A DNA stretch of 64,000 nt from sequence record MK817115.1; one strand, written 5' to 3'. The position numbers and the translations under genes were made by a program. Positions 5,442 through 60,015 of the stretch are shown here, piece after piece. How positions within the stretch are numbered: the stretch's first letter is position 1; every line of letters starts with the position of its first letter. The notes below the pieces were generated by a model that did not search any database, was not told the DNA's origin, and worked only from the letters and a program-made list of their open reading frames with translations. Source of the DNA: Escherichia phage vB_EcoM_phAPEC6.

Positions 5442-5526
5442 TCACTTCGTTCTCTCGTAACTCAAGAAGTCACTGCGTTTACTTCGTAAACTAGTTCCTT
5501 CTGAAAATGATAATGTACTTTAAAAA

Positions 5527-6096
5527 CTTGACGGGATTTGTTGAGGACTATTACATCCCCCCGCAGGGGAATGAAGGTAATAAAAAAGAGACAATTAAGT
5601 CTCTCTTGACGATGATGGCATCGGATATTATCGAATTGCGAATTTCTCAAATTTTGGACGGATCTTTCTTGTACCAAAATTTAGAGAGCGAAAGCGGGTT
5701 GCTCGGTTTCTCTCTATCGCAGTCATATGCAACGGTCGCTGGTCTTTTCATCAACAGCACTCAGTACTAACTCTATTCGATCAAAGTAGTACTTGTTCTC
5801 AAATTTTGGACGCAACTTTCTTGTAAAAATTGCGTCCGCTATCCTTGAACTCCCTTAGCAAATCTGGTAAGGTGCGAACCTTATACATCTATCTAGGAAC
5901 TCTCTGTATGCTTATCGGAGTTCTTTATACAGCCGTGTCGCCGTGATTCGTGGTCTTACATCGTGTTTGTTTGAATGCCAGTACTCTAACAGGTTTCTTC
6001 TGCTGTTCGCTACAACGGTAAAGCTCATCTATCCTTTACATTTTCAAGAGAAGTAGGTTCTCAGTGTCCATTTTTCAATGTCCGTTGTCATTTTCT
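5527..6096. ncRNA. candidate large structured non-coding element, copy A (paralog of 61208..61740)
   Basis: No conserved ORF; shares blocks with copy B (CATCCCCCCGCAGGGGA, GAAAGCGGGTTGCTC, GTTTCTCTCTATCGC, GCAACGGTCG, TGGTAAGGTGCGA, GGAGTTCTTTATACAGCCG, CTGCTGTTCG); hairpins with conserved stems and divergent loops; strand unresolved. Confidence 0.35.
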
Positions 6097-6103
6097 ATAT
6101 ACA

Positions 6104-6114
6104 TTATATCATTG
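6104..6114 (-). promoter_or_regulatory. extended -10 promoter-like motif TGATATAAT (minus strand), preceded by ATGGGACAT box
   Basis: Plus ATTATATCATT = minus AATGATATAAT; same 11-mer at 61748-61758 and TGATATAAT at 31238-31247. Confidence 0.3.
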
Positions 6115-6131
6115 GAACATATAATGTCCCA

Positions 6132-6530
6132 TTACATGTATACTTTTTTAAAATCCTTAGAACAACGATCAAAAATTGTGTTTATGAATTCAACATCTTC
6201 GATAATATTCGAATCGTTAGCAACATTTTCATTTCTTGTCGTGTTCCTATATGTGTGTTCAGGATGATTGTATACCACCTTGACTACATTATTTAGGTCT
6301 ATAAAATTTGACGTTTTTTGCGTATATGAAGCCTGAAGCTTGATGAGTTTACCATCATTCTCAAGATTGGTTTTATGAATTAGTTCTTCAATACCAGTTA
6401 AATGGCTATAGCTATCTTTTTCTTTTACAAAAGTAATAGTAACAAGAACTGCTTTCTCATCTCCCATATCGGAAATGTTTTTTACAGCACTGATAATTTC
6501 TAAGTTTGAAAAATCTAATTCTTTAAGCAT
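6132..6530 (-). CDS. hypothetical protein
   Basis: 132 aa ORF. Confidence 0.45.
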   Translation of the reverse strand: MLKELDFSNLEIISAVKNISDMGDEKAVLVTITFVKEKDSYSHLTGIEELIHKTNLENDGKLIKLQASYTQKTSNFIDLNNVVKVVYNHPEHTYRNTTRNENVANDSNIIEDVEFINTIFDRCSKDFKKVYM

Positions 6531-6940: not shown

Positions 6941-7597
6941 TCAATCATGTTTATTCAATTTCTTCTGTTCTTTTTTCAAAGCTTTCATATGACGACCAAA
7001 CTCTCGAACATGCCATAGATGATCAGTTTCCCATAATTCTTGACGTAACCTACGTTCTTCTAGTAGTTTCGACTTGTCAATGTTATTTTTCTTTTTTTGT
7101 ACATTAAAGAAATTATTCATATGTTCTTGGAGAAGATTACGACCTTTAACTTTCTCAAGAAACTCATCAACTGTTTCAGTTTTATTCGAACGTAGTTGAT
7201 TACATCTGGAGCACATAGTATTAAAGTTTGACTCTAAATCAGGTCCACCCTTAGATGCCAGATGATTATGGTCAACTGTCATTAAAACTTCATAAAGACC
7301 ACATACAGCATATACATTTAAATGTGGTTTACCATATACTGGATCAGAACATAATGAACGTTCAATGCGTACTTCAGTAGCTTCAATCCCACATGCCACG
7401 CATTTTGGATTCTTAACAAAAGTAAGAACTTTTTGTGGGAAATATCGAAAAGTAATACCATTTAAAGTGTAGCGTTTCATCTTAGTACTTCGTTGATTTA
7501 ATTCTTCAAGAAGTGATAATTTTGTCGTATAGTAAACATGATATTTGTTCATTTTATTCCTTGATATTGATTTTAATATCTTTACCTTGTAAATCAC
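6941..7597 (-). CDS. HNH-family endonuclease (free-standing, homing-endonuclease-like)
   Basis: 218 aa; Cys pair CVACG then DHNHLASKGGPDLESNFNTMCSRCN matching the HNH motif; bracketed by terminators. Confidence 0.55.
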   Translation of the reverse strand: MIYKVKILKSISRNKMNKYHVYYTTKLSLLEELNQRSTKMKRYTLNGITFRYFPQKVLTFVKNPKCVACGIEATEVRIERSLCSDPVYGKPHLNVYAVCGLYEVLMTVDHNHLASKGGPDLESNFNTMCSRCNQLRSNKTETVDEFLEKVKGRNLLQEHMNNFFNVQKKKNNIDKSKLLEERRLRQELWETDHLWHVREFGRHMKALKKEQKKLNKHD

Positions 7598-7862
7598 GAA
7601 TAGTTTTAATCAATGCGTCGTGTTTTAAAGCACATTCATTGTAGACTGCATCCCAACGAGTAAGTACTTTAAGAATTTCTGCACCATCATAACCTTTAAA
7701 ACCATTTTTGTCAATCATAATTTTTTGTGGTAGAGGTGTATCATCATCACATCTTTCTAACAGAATTTCTTGTTTAATTGGTGCGGGGGATTGTAGTTTT
7801 ACTTGCTCGGCACACCCACTTATAATTAAAAAAGAAATCATTGGAACTAATAATTTTTTCAT
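7554..7862 (-). CDS. outer-membrane spanin subunit (o-spanin lipoprotein)
   Basis: 102 aa; signal peptide with lipobox LIISGC; overlaps the upstream i-spanin-like gene, as in T4 pseT.3/pseT.2. Confidence 0.5.
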   Translation of the reverse strand: MKKLLVPMISFLIISGCAEQVKLQSPAPIKQEILLERCDDDTPLPQKIMIDKNGFKGYDGAEILKVLTRWDAVYNECALKHDALIKTIRDLQGKDIKINIKE

Positions 7863-8233
7863 TTGAATTTATTCCTCGCTGCTTGAGAATTTTGTTTTAG
7901 TTCATTCAGTACTTTTACACCATCTTCATCTAAACATACATTCTTATAAACTTCACGTTCTACAATAAAAGGAACCTTTGTTTCAATAACTTTAGCATTA
8001 TCTTCCATGATTTTTTTAGTTTCAAGGTAATTTTTTGCATTTTCTTGTTGCATTTTATCCAAGGCGGTATCAACTTTTTTAGCTATTTGTTGCTCTATGC
8101 TTTGTTGATATCCACTGTAATAAGTATTAGCTTCCCAACCAGCATAAGCTGAACCGCCAATTAATAATACAAAAGAAATTGGTTTCCAAAATGGAATAAG
8201 AATTTTTGAAACAATTATTTCTAACATACTCAT
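7859..8233 (-). CDS. inner-membrane spanin subunit (i-spanin)
   Basis: 124 aa; N-terminal TM helix then charged coiled-coil-like region; immediately upstream of and overlapping the lipoprotein gene. Confidence 0.5.
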   Translation of the reverse strand: MSMLEIIVSKILIPFWKPISFVLLIGGSAYAGWEANTYYSGYQQSIEQQIAKKVDTALDKMQQENAKNYLETKKIMEDNAKVIETKVPFIVEREVYKNVCLDEDGVKVLNELKQNSQAARNKFK

Positions 8234-8286: not shown

Positions 8287-8706
8287 TTACAACATTTTTT
8301 GAATATGTTCTACTAGTTCATACAGCTTAGTTTCATTATTCTCGAACTTTTCATCAACTTCAACATTGAATTTTTCTTCTAGTTCCATTACCATTTCAAT
8401 CCAATCAAGCCAATCAAAATGGAATTTTTCTTCGACTTCCAATTTAGTAAGATTGAAGTTCGCTGATACATCATTCTCTGATGTATCACAATAACGAGTA
8501 GTGATGAATTTGACAATTTCTTTTTCAACATCGTTTAATTCACGAGTTTGATATTCGGGCTGAAGATACCACCACTCTCCCTTATTAATAGATTCCAATT
8601 CTTGTTTGATTTCATGCATTACTTTATAACGGTCAGTACTTTTATGAATAGAATTGACTTCTTGGTTCAATACATGTAGTGCATTTTTAATACGTTCATT
8701 TAACAT
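8287..8706 (-). CDS. acyl-carrier-protein-like protein lacking the phosphopantetheine serine
   Basis: C-terminus FDWLDWIEMVMELEEKFNVEVDEKFEN aligns with ACP helix II ([26 protein letters not shown]) but Ser is replaced by Trp. Confidence 0.4.
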   Translation of the reverse strand: MLNERIKNALHVLNQEVNSIHKSTDRYKVMHEIKQELESINKGEWWYLQPEYQTRELNDVEKEIVKFITTRYCDTSENDVSANFNLTKLEVEEKFHFDWLDWIEMVMELEEKFNVEVDEKFENNETKLYELVEHIQKML

Positions 8707-8718
8707 TTTATCACCTTA

Positions 8719-8750
8719 TAAAAAAAAGAGAACTCCATATGAAGTTCTCT
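8719..8750 (-). terminator. rho-independent terminator
   Basis: Stem AGAGAACT/AGTTCTCT, loop CCATATGA, A-run 8720-8727 on plus; downstream of 8782..11571. Confidence 0.5.
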
Positions 8751-8781
8751 GATTATACATAATTACTTTTTCTATGTCAAG

Positions 8782-11571
8782 TTATAAATCACGGAAACGA
8801 TTTGGTGTGTTTAAGCGGTACATTGAGTATAATCCCAATCCACGCATAATCTCACCTGCCCAGAAACCAAAAAACATACCATTATCAGTACCTTCTCTAA
8901 CTGCTGGACTCCATGAACCATTCATTGGTGAACCTGGATTTACAATAACATAATTCTTTTGAAGTTCGAGAACTAAGTTATCAGCGAGTGTTGTTAGACC
9001 TTCTATTTTACATCCAGCCAATCCAGCAGCACAAGCCCCAGCTAACCACAACCCACACATATGACCTGTAAAGTCCCAATCTGGACCTTCAACTGTGCCA
9101 TCTTTATTGAAGATTGTTGGTGAACGACCATCATTATCTTTTTGAAATTGAATTAAAAAGTGAATCCAATTCTCACAAAATTCAACAAGATCTGCTGGTG
9201 GTTCAATTCCTCTCTCTGCGAGTTCTTGCCATGCTCTGGCAGCCCCAAAGAACGCACGTGGTTCATACCCACTCCATGCTTGATCACCCCAATGTAGCAT
9301 AGTAAATGTATCTGGTTCACCATATTTTAAGTTATCCCAGCGGTTCCAAACATATGCTTGTGCACACGGACCAACAGTACCGAATTGTTGAGTAAACCAT
9401 GTTTGGGAATCTTTCATAAAGCTTAACATGTTTCCTAAGCGTGTGTTATCTACTGGCTGGTCTTTAAAACAATATATCACAGGATATTGATAACCTGGAT
9501 ACGGTAAACCACGCCATCCTGAATACTGGTTCGCATACGGGTCAGTGATGTTAGAAAATGGTATTGTTCCTGGTGTGTAATGCAATGAGTTTAACAAATA
9601 ATCCTTGATTACACAATCCCCTAACTGTGCAGTATATGGTGATTCACCTGCAATTGTTATTGAAAATGTCATAGTATAGTCATCACCGTCAGCATCCGTG
9701 TATAATTCTGGAATGTCATTAATACAATACCAATCAATTATTGCAGCAACACCATCTACTGGGGTTGTATCAGGTAAAATAGTAATATCTTCTAGTTCAC
9801 TATAAACTGGTGCATCTGGTCTTGGGTCAGAACTTGGATGATTTGGCTGATACCCAGATAAACGTAATGTATCGGAACTTAGTGTGATTGTAGTCCATTC
9901 CCCGTGTGTTGCAGGAATCATCCACCACCATCTCCAACCATTATCATCTACAATTCTTATATTGTAATCATCTTCATATGAACGATAGGTAAAAGATTTA
10001 ACTTCAGACTTATTTGTTGCTAATAGCCAAAATCCAATAACAGCACCATCATCTTCACCACAAACTAACTGATTAATGGTATCGCGGCGTGTAACTAATA
10101 TATCAGTACTATATATCATTTCGGACGTTGCTGCACCATAAGGAACAACAATTCTATTATCAGCAATTATATAAGGGGAACCATCTGCTTTCTTTTCTCT
10201 AACAAATGCACTTAAAGGTGTTAATGAATGTGTGATATTTTGGTCTTTACTTTCCGGTAAGCCACAACGATAACGAACAACATCATGGTCATTTTTTGTT
10301 TTTGACAATTCCAGTACTGGTTTAAATGATAACGGCTTACCATCATCACATACACCACCATAGTCTACAAGTAATTTAGAATCAGCATTGACCCTGAACC
10401 AAATAGCTTGTTGTTCCATAGTACTTTGTGCACTTTGGTCTTGCCTGATAGTAATATATCCTAGAGAATTTCTACCAAACTTAGCAATAGCATCACTAGG
10501 ATAAAAATATTCATAGGAAATACCATCAGTGAATGGTGTGGTTACAATTGTACTTTGTCTGAAAAATTTATCTCTGGAGTCAATATCACCATAAGCATAA
10601 CACGTTAGTAGTGAACATTTCCAACCCAAATAATGTTTTCTTTCTTTTGTTATTTTATATAACAAATAAGAAGCATCACTAAACCATAATTCTGCATCTG
10701 ATGCGTTATCAGCAAATTCCAAATCAATTGGAACATGAAGAGGGCGGTTGTGTTGCATTTCATTTCGTTGAATTATCACACCACCATATTCTACTGGTTG
10801 ACGATTTGCAAAATTTAATTTATATACACCATTAATTGTTGTATTCTTTAATTGAACAGTTCCTTTTTCAGATTCGTCAAAACCTTCTGCTAAAATATTA
10901 CCATCCCAGTCGATTTTTCTACCCATGAAATCGATAATCCAGTCAACATCATATTGTTCACCTGGTGTATCCCAATCAACACTACCATCTGGTAATAATG
11001 CTTTTACTGAAGCATTTATTTGGTTCCATGCTAACGCACCTTTGAATGCAAATGTCACTTTATCCAAGAACTGACCATAATATGGTGCACCATGTGGTAT
11101 TTTACATTGACCATTAGTAAATGTAAATTCTACTCCCTTGAAACCACCATGTGTGGGCCAGCCATCATCAGCTAAAGGCCAGTTAGCCAATATAGGTTCT
11201 TTGGCATTAACTATCCAGTTACATTGTAGTGGTGTAGGTGGATCTGGTAATTCACGTCCAGCATAAAAGTACTGATGATATGCGTCCCAATACCACTTTG
11301 CCTTATCTAAAAACATTGGATCATTTGTTGCCAGATACGCATAAATGTATCCTAAAATTAATAGACTTTGACCTTCTGTTGTCCCGTCACCGTTTGGTTG
11401 ACCTTCCATTGCAGAATAGTTAATAAAATGACGGTTGTTCGCCAAAACACCCTGATTATTCACCACATAATGTTGTACTGTTGGGTCTATTGTATCACCA
11501 GTATTTCTTTCAATAAATTTGTGATGCCCATAAAGAAGTTGTACAATATTATCAATATTATTGTTTAACAT
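8782..11571 (-). CDS. large virion-associated protein of unknown function
   Basis: 929 aa, Trp/Tyr/Gly-rich, lies in a cluster with tail-fiber genes; no catalytic motif recognised by eye. Confidence 0.5.
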   Translation of the reverse strand: MLNNNIDNIVQLLYGHHKFIERNTGDTIDPTVQHYVVNNQGVLANNRHFINYSAMEGQPNGDGTTEGQSLLILGYIYAYLATNDPMFLDKAKWYWDAYHQYFYAGRELPDPPTPLQCNWIVNAKEPILANWPLADDGWPTHGGFKGVEFTFTNGQCKIPHGAPYYGQFLDKVTFAFKGALAWNQINASVKALLPDGSVDWDTPGEQYDVDWIIDFMGRKIDWDGNILAEGFDESEKGTVQLKNTTINGVYKLNFANRQPVEYGGVIIQRNEMQHNRPLHVPIDLEFADNASDAELWFSDASYLLYKITKERKHYLGWKCSLLTCYAYGDIDSRDKFFRQSTIVTTPFTDGISYEYFYPSDAIAKFGRNSLGYITIRQDQSAQSTMEQQAIWFRVNADSKLLVDYGGVCDDGKPLSFKPVLELSKTKNDHDVVRYRCGLPESKDQNITHSLTPLSAFVREKKADGSPYIIADNRIVVPYGAATSEMIYSTDILVTRRDTINQLVCGEDDGAVIGFWLLATNKSEVKSFTYRSYEDDYNIRIVDDNGWRWWWMIPATHGEWTTITLSSDTLRLSGYQPNHPSSDPRPDAPVYSELEDITILPDTTPVDGVAAIIDWYCINDIPELYTDADGDDYTMTFSITIAGESPYTAQLGDCVIKDYLLNSLHYTPGTIPFSNITDPYANQYSGWRGLPYPGYQYPVIYCFKDQPVDNTRLGNMLSFMKDSQTWFTQQFGTVGPCAQAYVWNRWDNLKYGEPDTFTMLHWGDQAWSGYEPRAFFGAARAWQELAERGIEPPADLVEFCENWIHFLIQFQKDNDGRSPTIFNKDGTVEGPDWDFTGHMCGLWLAGACAAGLAGCKIEGLTTLADNLVLELQKNYVIVNPGSPMNGSWSPAVREGTDNGMFFGFWAGEIMRGLGLYSMYRLNTPNRFRDL

Positions 11572-11572
11572 A

Positions 11573-12109
11573 TCATACTCCTGCTCTAATTAATGCACCG
11601 TACCATGTAACTCCTTTATCATATGTTTCTAATGAAATAATATCTTTTTCACCAATTTCATAAGAAAGAACAACTGGTCTGTTATATGACCATTTAACAT
11701 TAGAACCCCAATTAACTAGGTTTGAACCTGTTTGTTGTGTTAATAGGATGGTAATTGAATAAACTTCAGTAGGAGCCGTACCAATCGAAATAGTAGTATT
11801 TCTATCAGATAAATTAATATTAAAAACAGAATTGCCCGACAGTGGATTAATTAAAATATTATTAGAACTTAATACATTATATAACTTATTACTTGCACTA
11901 TCATATAATGTTACCCATTCTGTTTCATGATTCTCGTTAGTAGCTTTAGCTTTTATCTTAACATTATTTTCAGAATCAGTCATTCCAGTCCATCCAGATA
12001 TAATAAAAGAACTGTTTTTATTAGTTCCGAATGATGCAATCACAGAATCACTAAGAGAACTATCTTCACCATCAATAGATCCGAGTACTGACAATGTTAA
12101 AACCATCAT
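11573..12109 (-). CDS. hypothetical Ser/Asn/Thr-rich protein
   Basis: 178 aa; overlaps 12072..12263 in another frame, possibly one gene with a frameshift. Confidence 0.4.
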   Translation of the reverse strand: MMVLTLSVLGSIDGEDSSLSDSVIASFGTNKNSSFIISGWTGMTDSENNVKIKAKATNENHETEWVTLYDSASNKLYNVLSSNNILINPLSGNSVFNINLSDRNTTISIGTAPTEVYSITILLTQQTGSNLVNWGSNVKWSYNRPVVLSYEIGEKDIISLETYDKGVTWYGALIRAGV

Positions 12110-12263
12110 TTTTAATGTCTACACCAGTAGCACCAGAAAAATTATTTTGAAATTTAATAACTCCGGTAGTGTGGATATCTGTGAAAATTTGTTGTGCCAT
12201 ACTTAATCCTTGTGTTAATTTATATTGAGTATTTATTGAGTGTAATGGCATTTTTAGTACCAT
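12072..12263 (-). CDS. hypothetical small protein (possibly N-terminal part of 11573..12109 via frameshift)
   Basis: 63 aa ORF overlapping the next ORF by 38 nt; similar composition. Confidence 0.3.
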   Translation of the reverse strand: MVLKMPLHSINTQYKLTQGLSMAQQIFTDIHTTGVIKFQNNFSGATGVDIKNDGFNIVSTRIY

Positions 12264-59481: not shown

Positions 59482-60015
59482 TTATTTCCTCATGTATTTT
59501 ATAACGTCTTCAAATAATTGTATTTTTAAGTCCTCGTCATTTCCAGGTAAAAACTCACGAAAACTATCAAAATCTTCATTTTTTGCGAAGTTACGCATTT
59601 GTGTTGAGCTATATTGACTTACATTACGGTCAATACCTGCCTGAATTGCTTTTATACTACAAAAATTATACAACTTACCATTGTACATGTCAAGAGTTTT
59701 TTGAAAAGAATCAATACGGTCAGAACCACAAATGAAAAGAACATCTAAGTACTTTCCATCCAGTTCTCTCATTATATCAAATAGATTGTCTTCTGTGTAG
59801 ATGTTCTCTTGCACTGAAGGATAGAATCCCTCTGTATAATACATTTTTAGTTCAGGTGGGAGTGGGTTTTTTATATTGTCAGTACTGGTGCTTAGATATA
59901 TTTTTAAATCAGCATTGTACTGTTCTTGTAATGTTTTGGCCTTTTCAAAAACTAAACCATGTCCACGATGTACAGGATTAATACGACCAAACGTTAATAC
60001 ACATGTTTCTTTCAT
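59482..60015 (-). CDS. HxGH-type nucleotidyltransferase, likely NMN adenylyltransferase-like
   Basis: 177 aa; FGRINPVHRGH (HxGH) near N-terminus and SSTQMR (ISSTxxR-like) near C-terminus. Confidence 0.5.
   Translation of the reverse strand: MKETCVLTFGRINPVHRGHGLVFEKAKTLQEQYNADLKIYLSTSTDNIKNPLPPELKMYYTEGFYPSVQENIYTEDNLFDIMRELDGKYLDVLFICGSDRIDSFQKTLDMYNGKLYNFCSIKAIQAGIDRNVSQYSSTQMRNFAKNEDFDSFREFLPGNDEDLKIQLFEDVIKYMRK

Follow-up and report, generated by a model that had tools for sequence, protein, structure and literature searches.

Gene 510 of an Asteriusvirus phage encodes an acyl carrier protein-like domain that lacks the phosphopantetheine attachment serine

What use could a phage have for a protein that is folded like an acyl carrier protein (ACP) but lacks the residue to which the prosthetic group of such proteins is attached? 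ACP is among the most connected of bacterial proteins: fatty acids, phospholipids, lipid A, biotin and lipoate are made with its help, and IscS, SpoT and MukB are further binding partners. ACP genes are common in phages as well. The question is raised by a single open reading frame (ORF) in a 64,000-nucleotide stretch of DNA from Escherichia phage vB_EcoM_phAPEC6 (MK817115.1), the whole of which is called the window here. Escherichia phage 121Q (Asteriusvirus, 348.5 kb) and the window share 99.9% identity, the minus strand of the window corresponding to the plus strand of the 121Q record, and the ORF at 8287..8706 on the minus strand is 100% identical to gene 510 of 121Q, which carries the label "hypothetical protein". 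Our results place the product, gp510, in the ACP superfamily and indicate that the ACP fold and its docking helix have long been kept in a branch of phages where the cofactor site was repeatedly discarded, a natural experiment for a cofactor-independent job during infection. The reading that we prefer, with a rough probability of 0.42 and argued from sequence comparisons, is that gp510 may bind, block or redirect a host protein that normally recognises ACP, and would do so independently of the cofactor. The parts of the gene on which the argument turns are the following.

8287..8706, minus strand: coding sequence of gene 510, ATG start, 139 amino acids, 17.0 kDa (17.02), isoelectric point (pI) 4.75, net charge about -14
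8293..8538, minus strand: ACP-fold domain, residues ~57-138, delimited by phmmer, profile searches, AlphaFold2 (AF2) and Foldseek
8410..8412, minus strand: codon TGG of Trp99, at the position of the phosphopantetheinyl serine (Ser36 of E. coli AcpP) and at the N-terminus of helix II
8401..8403, minus strand: codon TGG of Trp102, at the position of E. coli Thr39; the signature of the DxLDW clade and invariant there
8584..8697, minus strand: long amphipathic N-terminal helix, residues 4-41, AF2 predicted local distance difference test (pLDDT) ~66-74

An initial annotation, made from the letters of the window, had aligned the C-terminal 60 residues of gp510 with helices II and III of ACP. The homology stood, but its extent had been drawn too narrowly, since the entire four-helix domain of residues ~57-138 is homologous and not helices II and III alone. 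When gp510 was searched as a single sequence against the PDB with phmmer, the best matches were all ACPs, headed by the Plasmodium ACP entries 3gzl and 2fq0 (E~9e-4). ACP profiles were matched significantly, as the annotation had led one to expect, although below curated cut-offs: NCBIfam TIGR00517 gave E=2.6e-5 and 24 bits (cut-off 70.45), and Pfam PP-binding_2 (PF14573) gave 19.1 bits (cut-off 32). Among the PHROG families of ACPs, 5934 was matched at E=1.1e-7 and 4154 at E=5e-6, while the family to which gp510 itself belongs, PHROG 18343 of unknown function, was matched at E=1.3e-61 over residues 2-139. The Pfam family PF00550 was matched by only 9 of the 35 members of the phage family that we assembled, at E>=5e-4. 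In the opposite direction, the profile of these 35 sequences matched Bacillus subtilis ACP at E=3.5e-7 over ACP residues 2-74, and the homology consequently covers the whole domain. Since the curated Pfam and NCBIfam thresholds are not reached, gp510 is a divergent member of the ACP superfamily that lies below the curated family cut-offs.

The predicted structure is in line with this assignment. The AF2 model, built on the 35-member family alignment, has pLDDT values of ~80-93 for residues 59-138 and displays the four-helix ACP fold, with helix I at residues 59-71, a loop with short helices, helix II at 99-113, helix III at 119-122 and helix IV at 128-138; loop I carries a 5-residue insertion relative to E. 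coli AcpP. All of the 50 best Foldseek matches of the model in the PDB were ACPs, with target-normalised template modelling (TM) scores of 0.52-0.77, and of 0.72-0.77 for the structures of B. subtilis and E. coli ACP. The ACP domain has a pI of 4.3 and a charge of about -14, compared with a pI of 4.05 for E. coli AcpP. A chance similarity to ACPs was considered and is ruled out by the profile E-values together with the fold matches.

Trp99, with which helix II of the model begins, fell opposite the attachment serine in every alignment made; in the 3gzl and 2fq0 phmmer alignments D-S-L-D of the ACP lies over D-W-L-D of gp510, so that the serine of the DSL motif corresponds to W99. Phosphopantetheinyl transferases of the AcpS and Sfp types act on the serine hydroxyl. 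Because the serine is absent and there is no serine or threonine at or beside the attachment site (FDWLDW), phosphopantetheine or a thioester cargo at the canonical site of gp510 is, as far as the sequence tells, chemically excluded. The initial annotation had been correct in stating that the phosphopantetheinyl serine is replaced by tryptophan, as the TGG codon at 8410-8412 on the minus strand confirms, and its further statement that the protein cannot be acylated also holds, in that by the known chemistry of AcpS and Sfp the tryptophan form cannot become holo- or acyl-ACP.

The meaning of the substitution depends on what related phages have at the same place. Gene 510 is an ortholog of a protein family conserved across the RaK2-like jumbo phages, comprising Asteriusvirus, Alcyoneusvirus, Mimasvirus, Eneladusvirus, phage Munch and metagenomic relatives. 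Using tblastn and profile searches we found the gene in all Asteriusvirus genomes and in Alcyoneusvirus (RaK2, K64-1 and Muenster; ~30% identity). A profile search of 1.84 billion representatives, clustered at 50%, added ~17 further clusters of 130-154 amino acids with the same two-part architecture, and tblastn from these new clusters reached GAP32, CBB and XbC2 (Mimasvirus) as well as the Eneladusvirus phages fHe-Yen9-03 and -04, Serratia BF and the Erwinia pEa_SNUABM phages. Salmonella phage Munch also has a family member. The orthologs of Mimasvirus and Eneladusvirus are annotated "acyl carrier protein", and that of Munch "hypothetical protein".

Within this family the attachment site is far from constant. 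The canonical DSLD, with serine codon TCA, is found in Mimasvirus, Eneladusvirus, Munch and several metagenomic members. A second group, which we call the DxLDW clade, is monophyletic and carries an invariant tryptophan three residues past the site; it comprises Asteriusvirus, Alcyoneusvirus and five metagenomic lineages, and 18 of its members entered the analysis of site variability. The residue "x" is tryptophan in 121Q, PBECO4, Ecwhy_1, TH47 and CMSTMSU; serine in A4, UE-S1 and ph0011, close E. coli relatives in which the DSL motif is kept; threonine in RaK2 and one metagenomic sequence; asparagine or arginine in the Turkey5/JNE01 group; and glutamate, aspartate or lysine in metagenomic sequences. 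At the nucleotide level the codon is TCA in A4, UE-S1, ph0011, GAP32, CBB, XbC2 and Yen9-03, ACA (threonine) in RaK2 and AAC (asparagine) in Turkey5. With eight residue types (W/S/T/N/R/E/D/K) among the 18 members, the entropy of the site is 2.73 bits, which exceeds that of any other position in helix II and places it eighth among all 139. The surroundings behave differently: D98 and W102 are invariant in the clade, D101, E104, E110 and F113 are nearly so, and the acidic recognition helix II is kept in gp510, where equivalents of D35, D38, E41 and E47 are present. On a neighbor-joining tree rooted with E. coli AcpP, Fitch parsimony gave serine as the ancestral state and at least 10 changes at the site.

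Two lines of evidence speak for maintenance of the gene by selection. The ratio of nonsynonymous to synonymous substitution rates (dN/dS) was 0.16-0.30 in pairwise comparisons within Asteriusvirus, and 0.20 between two genes of the tryptophan type, those of 121Q and Ecwhy_1. Moreover, more than 40 phage genomes carry the ORF in intact form. A decaying pseudogene is ruled out by these observations. From purifying dN/dS combined with a hypervariable site it follows that selection acts on the fold and on the acidic helix II and not on the prosthetic group, and from the eight residue types in related phages that the cofactor is dispensable for the DxLDW branch of the family. The hypervariability also suggests that the tryptophan itself is not the key feature: loss of the serine is a general property of the DxLDW clade and not a special adaptation to tryptophan.

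The second part of the two-part architecture is the N-terminal helix, a shared feature that the initial annotation did not see. Hydrophobic residues follow a heptad-like spacing (I6, L10, L13, V17, I20, Y27, M30, I33, L37, I40), and several positions are conserved in the family, including an R-Y motif in which Y27 is invariant across genera. The N-terminal region matches no known family; when its profile was searched against the PDB the best E-value was a non-significant 0.053. That match involved the C-terminal helices of 2kw2, a "specialized acyl carrier protein", and could hint at the remnant of a duplicated ACP or be due to chance.

The sequence in front of gene 510 contains signals that bear on when the protein might be made.

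8711..8717, minus strand: Shine-Dalgarno-like AAGGTGA, 4 nt upstream of the ATG, read from the sequence
8719..8750, minus strand: intrinsic-terminator-like hairpin with a 10-bp stem, a 4-nt loop and a run of T
8752..8780, minus strand: sigma-70 consensus promoter, TTGACA-17 nt-TATAAT, matching at 12 of 12 positions and lying directly past the stop codon of gene 509

Perfect sigma-70 sites of this kind occur twice in the window, both on the coding strand, against 0.17 expected; the other one lies at 59665-59693 on the minus strand. The promoter is kept in PBECO4 and Turkey5, has a 16-nt spacer in UE-S1, and has a degraded -10 hexamer in ph0011 and A4, and the promoter-hairpin module as a whole (8719-8780) is kept, with variants, in PBECO4, UE-S1, ph0011, A4 and Turkey5. 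Transcription would be expected to start at ~8744-8746, 6-8 nt past the -10 hexamer and inside the 5' arm of the hairpin. Because of this position, the hairpin may halt read-through from the late virion gene 509 while sparing transcripts from the promoter, and would thus insulate gene 510. The T4-type late motif TATAAATA, the use of which by a 121Q-type phage is not established, was found 2 times in the window versus 13.4 expected from shuffles, with all 100 shuffles containing at least 2, and it is absent near gene 510. Such depletion suggests avoidance of the motif in a region of early or middle genes, and these signals taken from the sequence suggest that gene 510 is the first gene of a transcription unit that the RNA polymerase of the host reads early.

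The genes on both sides of gene 510 all lie on the same strand and are mostly nucleotide-metabolism, RNA-repair and unknown small genes. Those that enter the argument are listed below, together with a gene found at the corresponding place in other lineages.

7859..8233, minus strand: i-spanin, Rz-like, 124 amino acids, the next ORF downstream of gene 510; Rz-like spanin PHROG match 6.6e-29
7554..7862, minus strand: o-spanin-like lipoprotein, 102 amino acids, starting MKKLLVPMISFLIISGC, with a lipoprotein signal and the lipobox IISGC (read from the sequence)
6941-7597, minus strand: HNH endonuclease gene, after the spanin pair
8782-11571, minus strand: gene 509, 929 amino acids, 105.34 kDa, upstream neighbour of gene 510
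12072-12200, minus strand: gene 507, 42 amino acids, 4.66 kDa
phrog_21561, in other phage loci: L002 4015-4578; L006 (GAP32) 5454-6029; L017 2989-3546

The spanin genes do adjoin the ORF, as the initial annotation had remarked, and this arrangement is not peculiar to the window. The order ACP-like gene, i-spanin, o-spanin, HNH, DUF7325 was found in every lineage examined, down to ~20% identity, and proteins of 135-142 amino acids with the N-terminal helix, the R-Y motif and DSLD lie directly upstream of the spanins in GAP32, CBB, XbC2, Yen9-03 and Munch. Spanin adjacency of the Eneladusvirus ACP has been noted previously (PMC7760394). The upstream side varies: the neighbour is the 929-amino-acid virion protein (gene 509) in 121Q, an RlaP-type nucleotidyltransferase in Ecwhy_1 and one metagenomic contig, and phrog_21561, whose stop codon overlaps the start codon of the gene for the ACP-like protein, in RaK2, GAP32, CBB, XbC2, Yen9 and Munch. 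The phrog_21561 product has ~190 amino acids and is 55-64% identical across Alcyoneusvirus, Mimasvirus, Eneladusvirus and Munch; neither Pfam nor the PDB gave a match to it, and Escherichia phages do not carry it.

Several observations were made on the same loci in passing. Some records name phrog_21561 "oxidoreductase", without visible support. For a putative homing endonuclease, the HNH gene is unusually stable, coming after the spanin pair in all lineages that were examined. Ecwhy_1, UE-S1 and ph0011 lack gene 509; of these, UE-S1 and ph0011 retain a 3' remnant of it in front of the promoter, and gain or loss of the block therefore took place inside the genus. In GAP32 the gene annotated "acyl carrier protein" (GAP32_159, locus L006) has its annotated start at 6163, and the ORF beginning at 6001 (6001-6417) encodes the N-terminal helix; judging from the sequence, the deposited start is probably too far downstream. 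The copies of CMSTMSU (L012), annotated as a nucleotidyltransferase fusion, and of Salmonella phage SD-15_S21 (P0004) have altered or extended C-termini, which look like frameshift or assembly errors rather than biology.

A place in the Asteriusvirus particle was also considered. The authors of the phAPEC6 study regard that phage as the same species as 121Q (PMC7247149), and their virion table lists proteins of 105.34 and 4.66 kDa (gp314c and gp315c) and no protein of 17.02 kDa (PMC7247149 Table 1). By exact mass match the two listed proteins are the products of genes 509 and 507. A structural role of gp510 in the Asteriusvirus virion is thus unsupported.

How might such a protein act? In ACPs the acidic face of helix II is the surface that docks on partner enzymes. 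The family ancestor possessed a canonical DSLD attachment site; in the DxLDW clade the serine, having become dispensable, gave way to other residues several times, to tryptophan in 121Q. Conservation of the acidic helix II, of the clade-specific tryptophan and of the N-terminal helix while the cofactor site was lost points to a cofactor-independent binding module, and gp510 would then be a protein-binding module that works free of any prosthetic group. Its acidic helix II face (D98, D101, E104, E110 and E111) is predicted to engage the partner, and the N-terminal helix could serve as a second interface or in oligomerisation. Gene 510 would probably be transcribed early, by host RNA polymerase from the consensus sigma-70 promoter, and a host protein that recognises ACP might then be blocked or redirected, as it is by overproduced apo-ACP. 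Precedents for both halves of this proposal exist. Apo-ACP stops the growth of E. coli by inhibiting glycerol-3-phosphate acyltransferase (review PMC3896788), and the mitochondrial ACP of Plasmodium (mACP), in which phenylalanine replaces the serine, works purely by binding Isd11 (PMC8547962). The idea of the initial annotation that gp510 is a decoy titrating the ACP partners of the host is plausible by analogy, being compatible with the acidic helix II, the predicted early promoter and the toxicity of apo-ACP. A bolder version, which we regard as speculative and on balance unlikely, would make the DxLDW clade a set of early-expressed decoys that, with no cofactor required, block the site at which ACP docks on an essential enzyme or complex of the host (for example PlsB, LpxA/LpxD, IscS or MukB), with the variable site, central to the interface, under diversifying selection in an arms race and the N-terminal helix dimerising the protein or anchoring it to a second site.

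The proposal that gp510 targets a host protein should be interpreted with caution, since several results weigh against it. The residue at the serine site ranges from tryptophan to lysine to aspartate, and a mimic of the pantetheine arm, which Phe113 of Plasmodium mACP is proposed to be, should be conserved. Neither the invariant Trp102 nor the N-terminal helix has a counterpart in bacterial ACPs, so that gp510 may have a wholly new binding specificity, with a phage protein as its target. The function and timing of the promoter are predictions from consensus matches. In the other genera the gene overlaps phrog_21561 and is without a promoter of its own, and early independent expression may be specific to Asteriusvirus. 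An ACP ortholog is, moreover, listed among the virion proteins of an Eneladusvirus identified by liquid chromatography-tandem mass spectrometry (PMC7760394).

Part of this evidence can be read in favor of an adaptor or scaffold internal to the phage, in which the N-terminal helix and the D-x-L-D-W face would bind another phage protein, either the product of a conserved neighbouring gene or an assembly or replication factor, and the ACP fold would be no more than a reused acidic helical module. We consider this possible and nearly as likely as a host ACP partner. It would account for W102 and for a heptad-spaced, family-specific N-terminal helix that cellular ACPs lack, for the translational coupling to phrog_21561 in the six phages named above, and for the Eneladusvirus virion data. 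It would also easily explain the variety of hosts (Escherichia, Klebsiella, Cronobacter, Pectobacterium, Yersinia, Erwinia and Xanthomonas), but ACP and its partner enzymes are highly conserved across these same hosts, and host breadth does not discriminate. Against an adaptor, phrog_21561 has been lost from Asteriusvirus, with no match in any Escherichia phage, where gene 510 is still under purifying selection, and gp510 is absent from the phAPEC6 virion proteome. Among the upstream genes searched for a partner, the phrog_10375 paralogs and phrog_21561 gave no Pfam or PDB match.

The other explanations appear considerably weaker. The constant company of the spanins, set against upstream neighbours that vary, raises the thought of a lysis-associated factor co-transcribed with them, acting as an antiholin-like timer or weakening the envelope through inhibition of lipid or lipid A synthesis; no terminator was predicted between gene 510 and the i-spanin gene in 121Q, and the adjacency is in the prior literature. 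We judge such a role improbable. The HNH and DUF7325 genes downstream are just as conserved in order, which looks like backbone synteny; the endolysin candidate is ~9 kb away; in the Munch record an annotated terminator separates the ACP-like gene from that of the i-spanin; and the consensus sigma-70 promoter points to early expression and not to a function in lysis. Nor does gp510 look like a lysis protein: it is acidic and soluble, its maximum in a 19-residue Kyte-Doolittle window is 0.06, and it has no hydrophobic or transmembrane segment, signal peptide or lipobox. A supply of acyl groups for the o-spanin is no argument either, as that lipoprotein receives its acyl groups from phospholipids, through the Lgt/Lnt pathway of the host, and not from acyl-ACP. 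Slightly less probable again is an acidic mimic of nucleic acid, or an anti-defence protein, that imitates DNA or blocks a host defence or a complex of the structural maintenance of chromosomes (SMC) type. The charge of the ACP-like domain, the consensus early promoter and a hypervariable site set between invariant residues, as seen at arms-race interfaces, would suit it. E. coli MukBEF binds AcpP. It is moreover a known phage target through a DNA mimic (PMC7617805). Nevertheless, a strong negative charge is common to every ACP, and all significant (E<=0.001) profile and fold matches were ACPs or phage relatives, with no known DNA-mimic or anti-defence family among them in searches that left out the PADLOC library.

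The least credible alternative is that gp510 still acts as a carrier, its modification being placed on a different residue or made by a phage enzyme not yet known. Some database records do name the 121Q-type gene acpP or D-alanyl carrier protein, and the DSLD orthologs are probably substrates of host AcpS because they keep the acidic helix II residues by which AcpS recognises ACP. Yet the FDWLDW site of gp510 offers no hydroxyl residue, sister lineages have lysine, aspartate, glutamate, arginine or asparagine there, and neither the window nor related phages yielded a homolog of phosphopantetheinyl transferases: phmmer searches with E. coli AcpS and AcpP against all ORFs of the window returned no transferase and no second ACP, nothing beyond gp510, and tblastn with AcpS against 50,697 phage records hit no RaK2-like phage, with a query that did recover annotated acpS genes. 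The carrier names are misleading for the tryptophan, threonine, asparagine and arginine forms.

In the literature searched we found no description of the N-terminal helix architecture common to the family, of recurrent loss of the attachment serine in a defined clade under purifying selection, or of the invariant tryptophan that marks the DxLDW clade, and no paper giving a function for the RaK2-like ACP family. What the family would teach depends on its partner. If host ACP-binding sites are occupied, gp510 and its relatives would represent a new strategy of host takeover and would supply, ready to use, proteins that inhibit antibiotic-targeted enzymes of lipid synthesis; a decoy, if that is what gp510 is, would be the first ACP mimic of natural viral origin to serve in host takeover. 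With a phage protein as partner, a metabolic carrier would have been turned into a structural adaptor. We regard the interest of the locus as moderate, and greater only if a host target is found.

Set beside known systems, gp510 shares with bacterial AcpP (PF00550 PP-binding, TIGR00517) the four-helix fold, sequence homology over the whole domain, a very low pI, equivalents of D35, D38, E41, E47 and E48, F50 and the hydrophobic core. It departs from AcpP in having tryptophan at Ser36, the invariant tryptophan at Thr39, the 5-residue insertion in loop I and an N-terminal extension of ~55 residues with a long helix, and in scoring below the curated cut-offs. The "acyl carrier proteins" of Mimasvirus and Eneladusvirus (GAP32_159, CBB gp163, XbC2_157, fHe-Yen9 g153/g156 and that of Serratia BF) are orthologs by position, lying after an RlaP-type nucleotidyltransferase block and before i-spanin, o-spanin, HNH and DUF7325, and they resemble gp510 in their ~135-140 amino acids, the N-terminal helix with its R-Y motif and the ACP domain. 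They differ in that DSLD is kept, the tryptophan at +3 is lacking, identity to gp510 is ~15-23%, and there is translational coupling of the gene to phrog_21561, a gene missing from Asteriusvirus. The primary work on apo-ACP, reportedly by Keating, Carey and Cronan in 1995, is said to include a non-modifiable S36T mutant. Like apo-ACP of E. coli, gp510 is an unmodified, ACP-shaped cytoplasmic protein, and apo-ACP provides the precedent for inhibition of glycerol-3-phosphate acyltransferase and a stop of growth (review PMC3896788); apo-ACP toxicity is however an overexpression artefact of the host's own ACP, to which gp510 is ~23% identical and adds extra elements. A parallel in kind is mACP of Plasmodium falciparum, with Phe113 in place of serine (PMC8547962): an ACP fold in which the attachment serine has given way to an aromatic residue, retained under selection and, in the case of mACP, functioning through protein binding alone by way of conserved acidic contacts. 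A search limited to the neighbouring genes identified no LYR-type partner for gp510. Phe113 is proposed to form part of the contact surface for the LYR protein Isd11, binding being weakened substantially by F113A (PMC8547962), whereas the corresponding site of gp510 is hypervariable among close relatives and its N-terminal helix is unrelated. The resemblance between gp510 and mACP is one of analogy and not of common descent.

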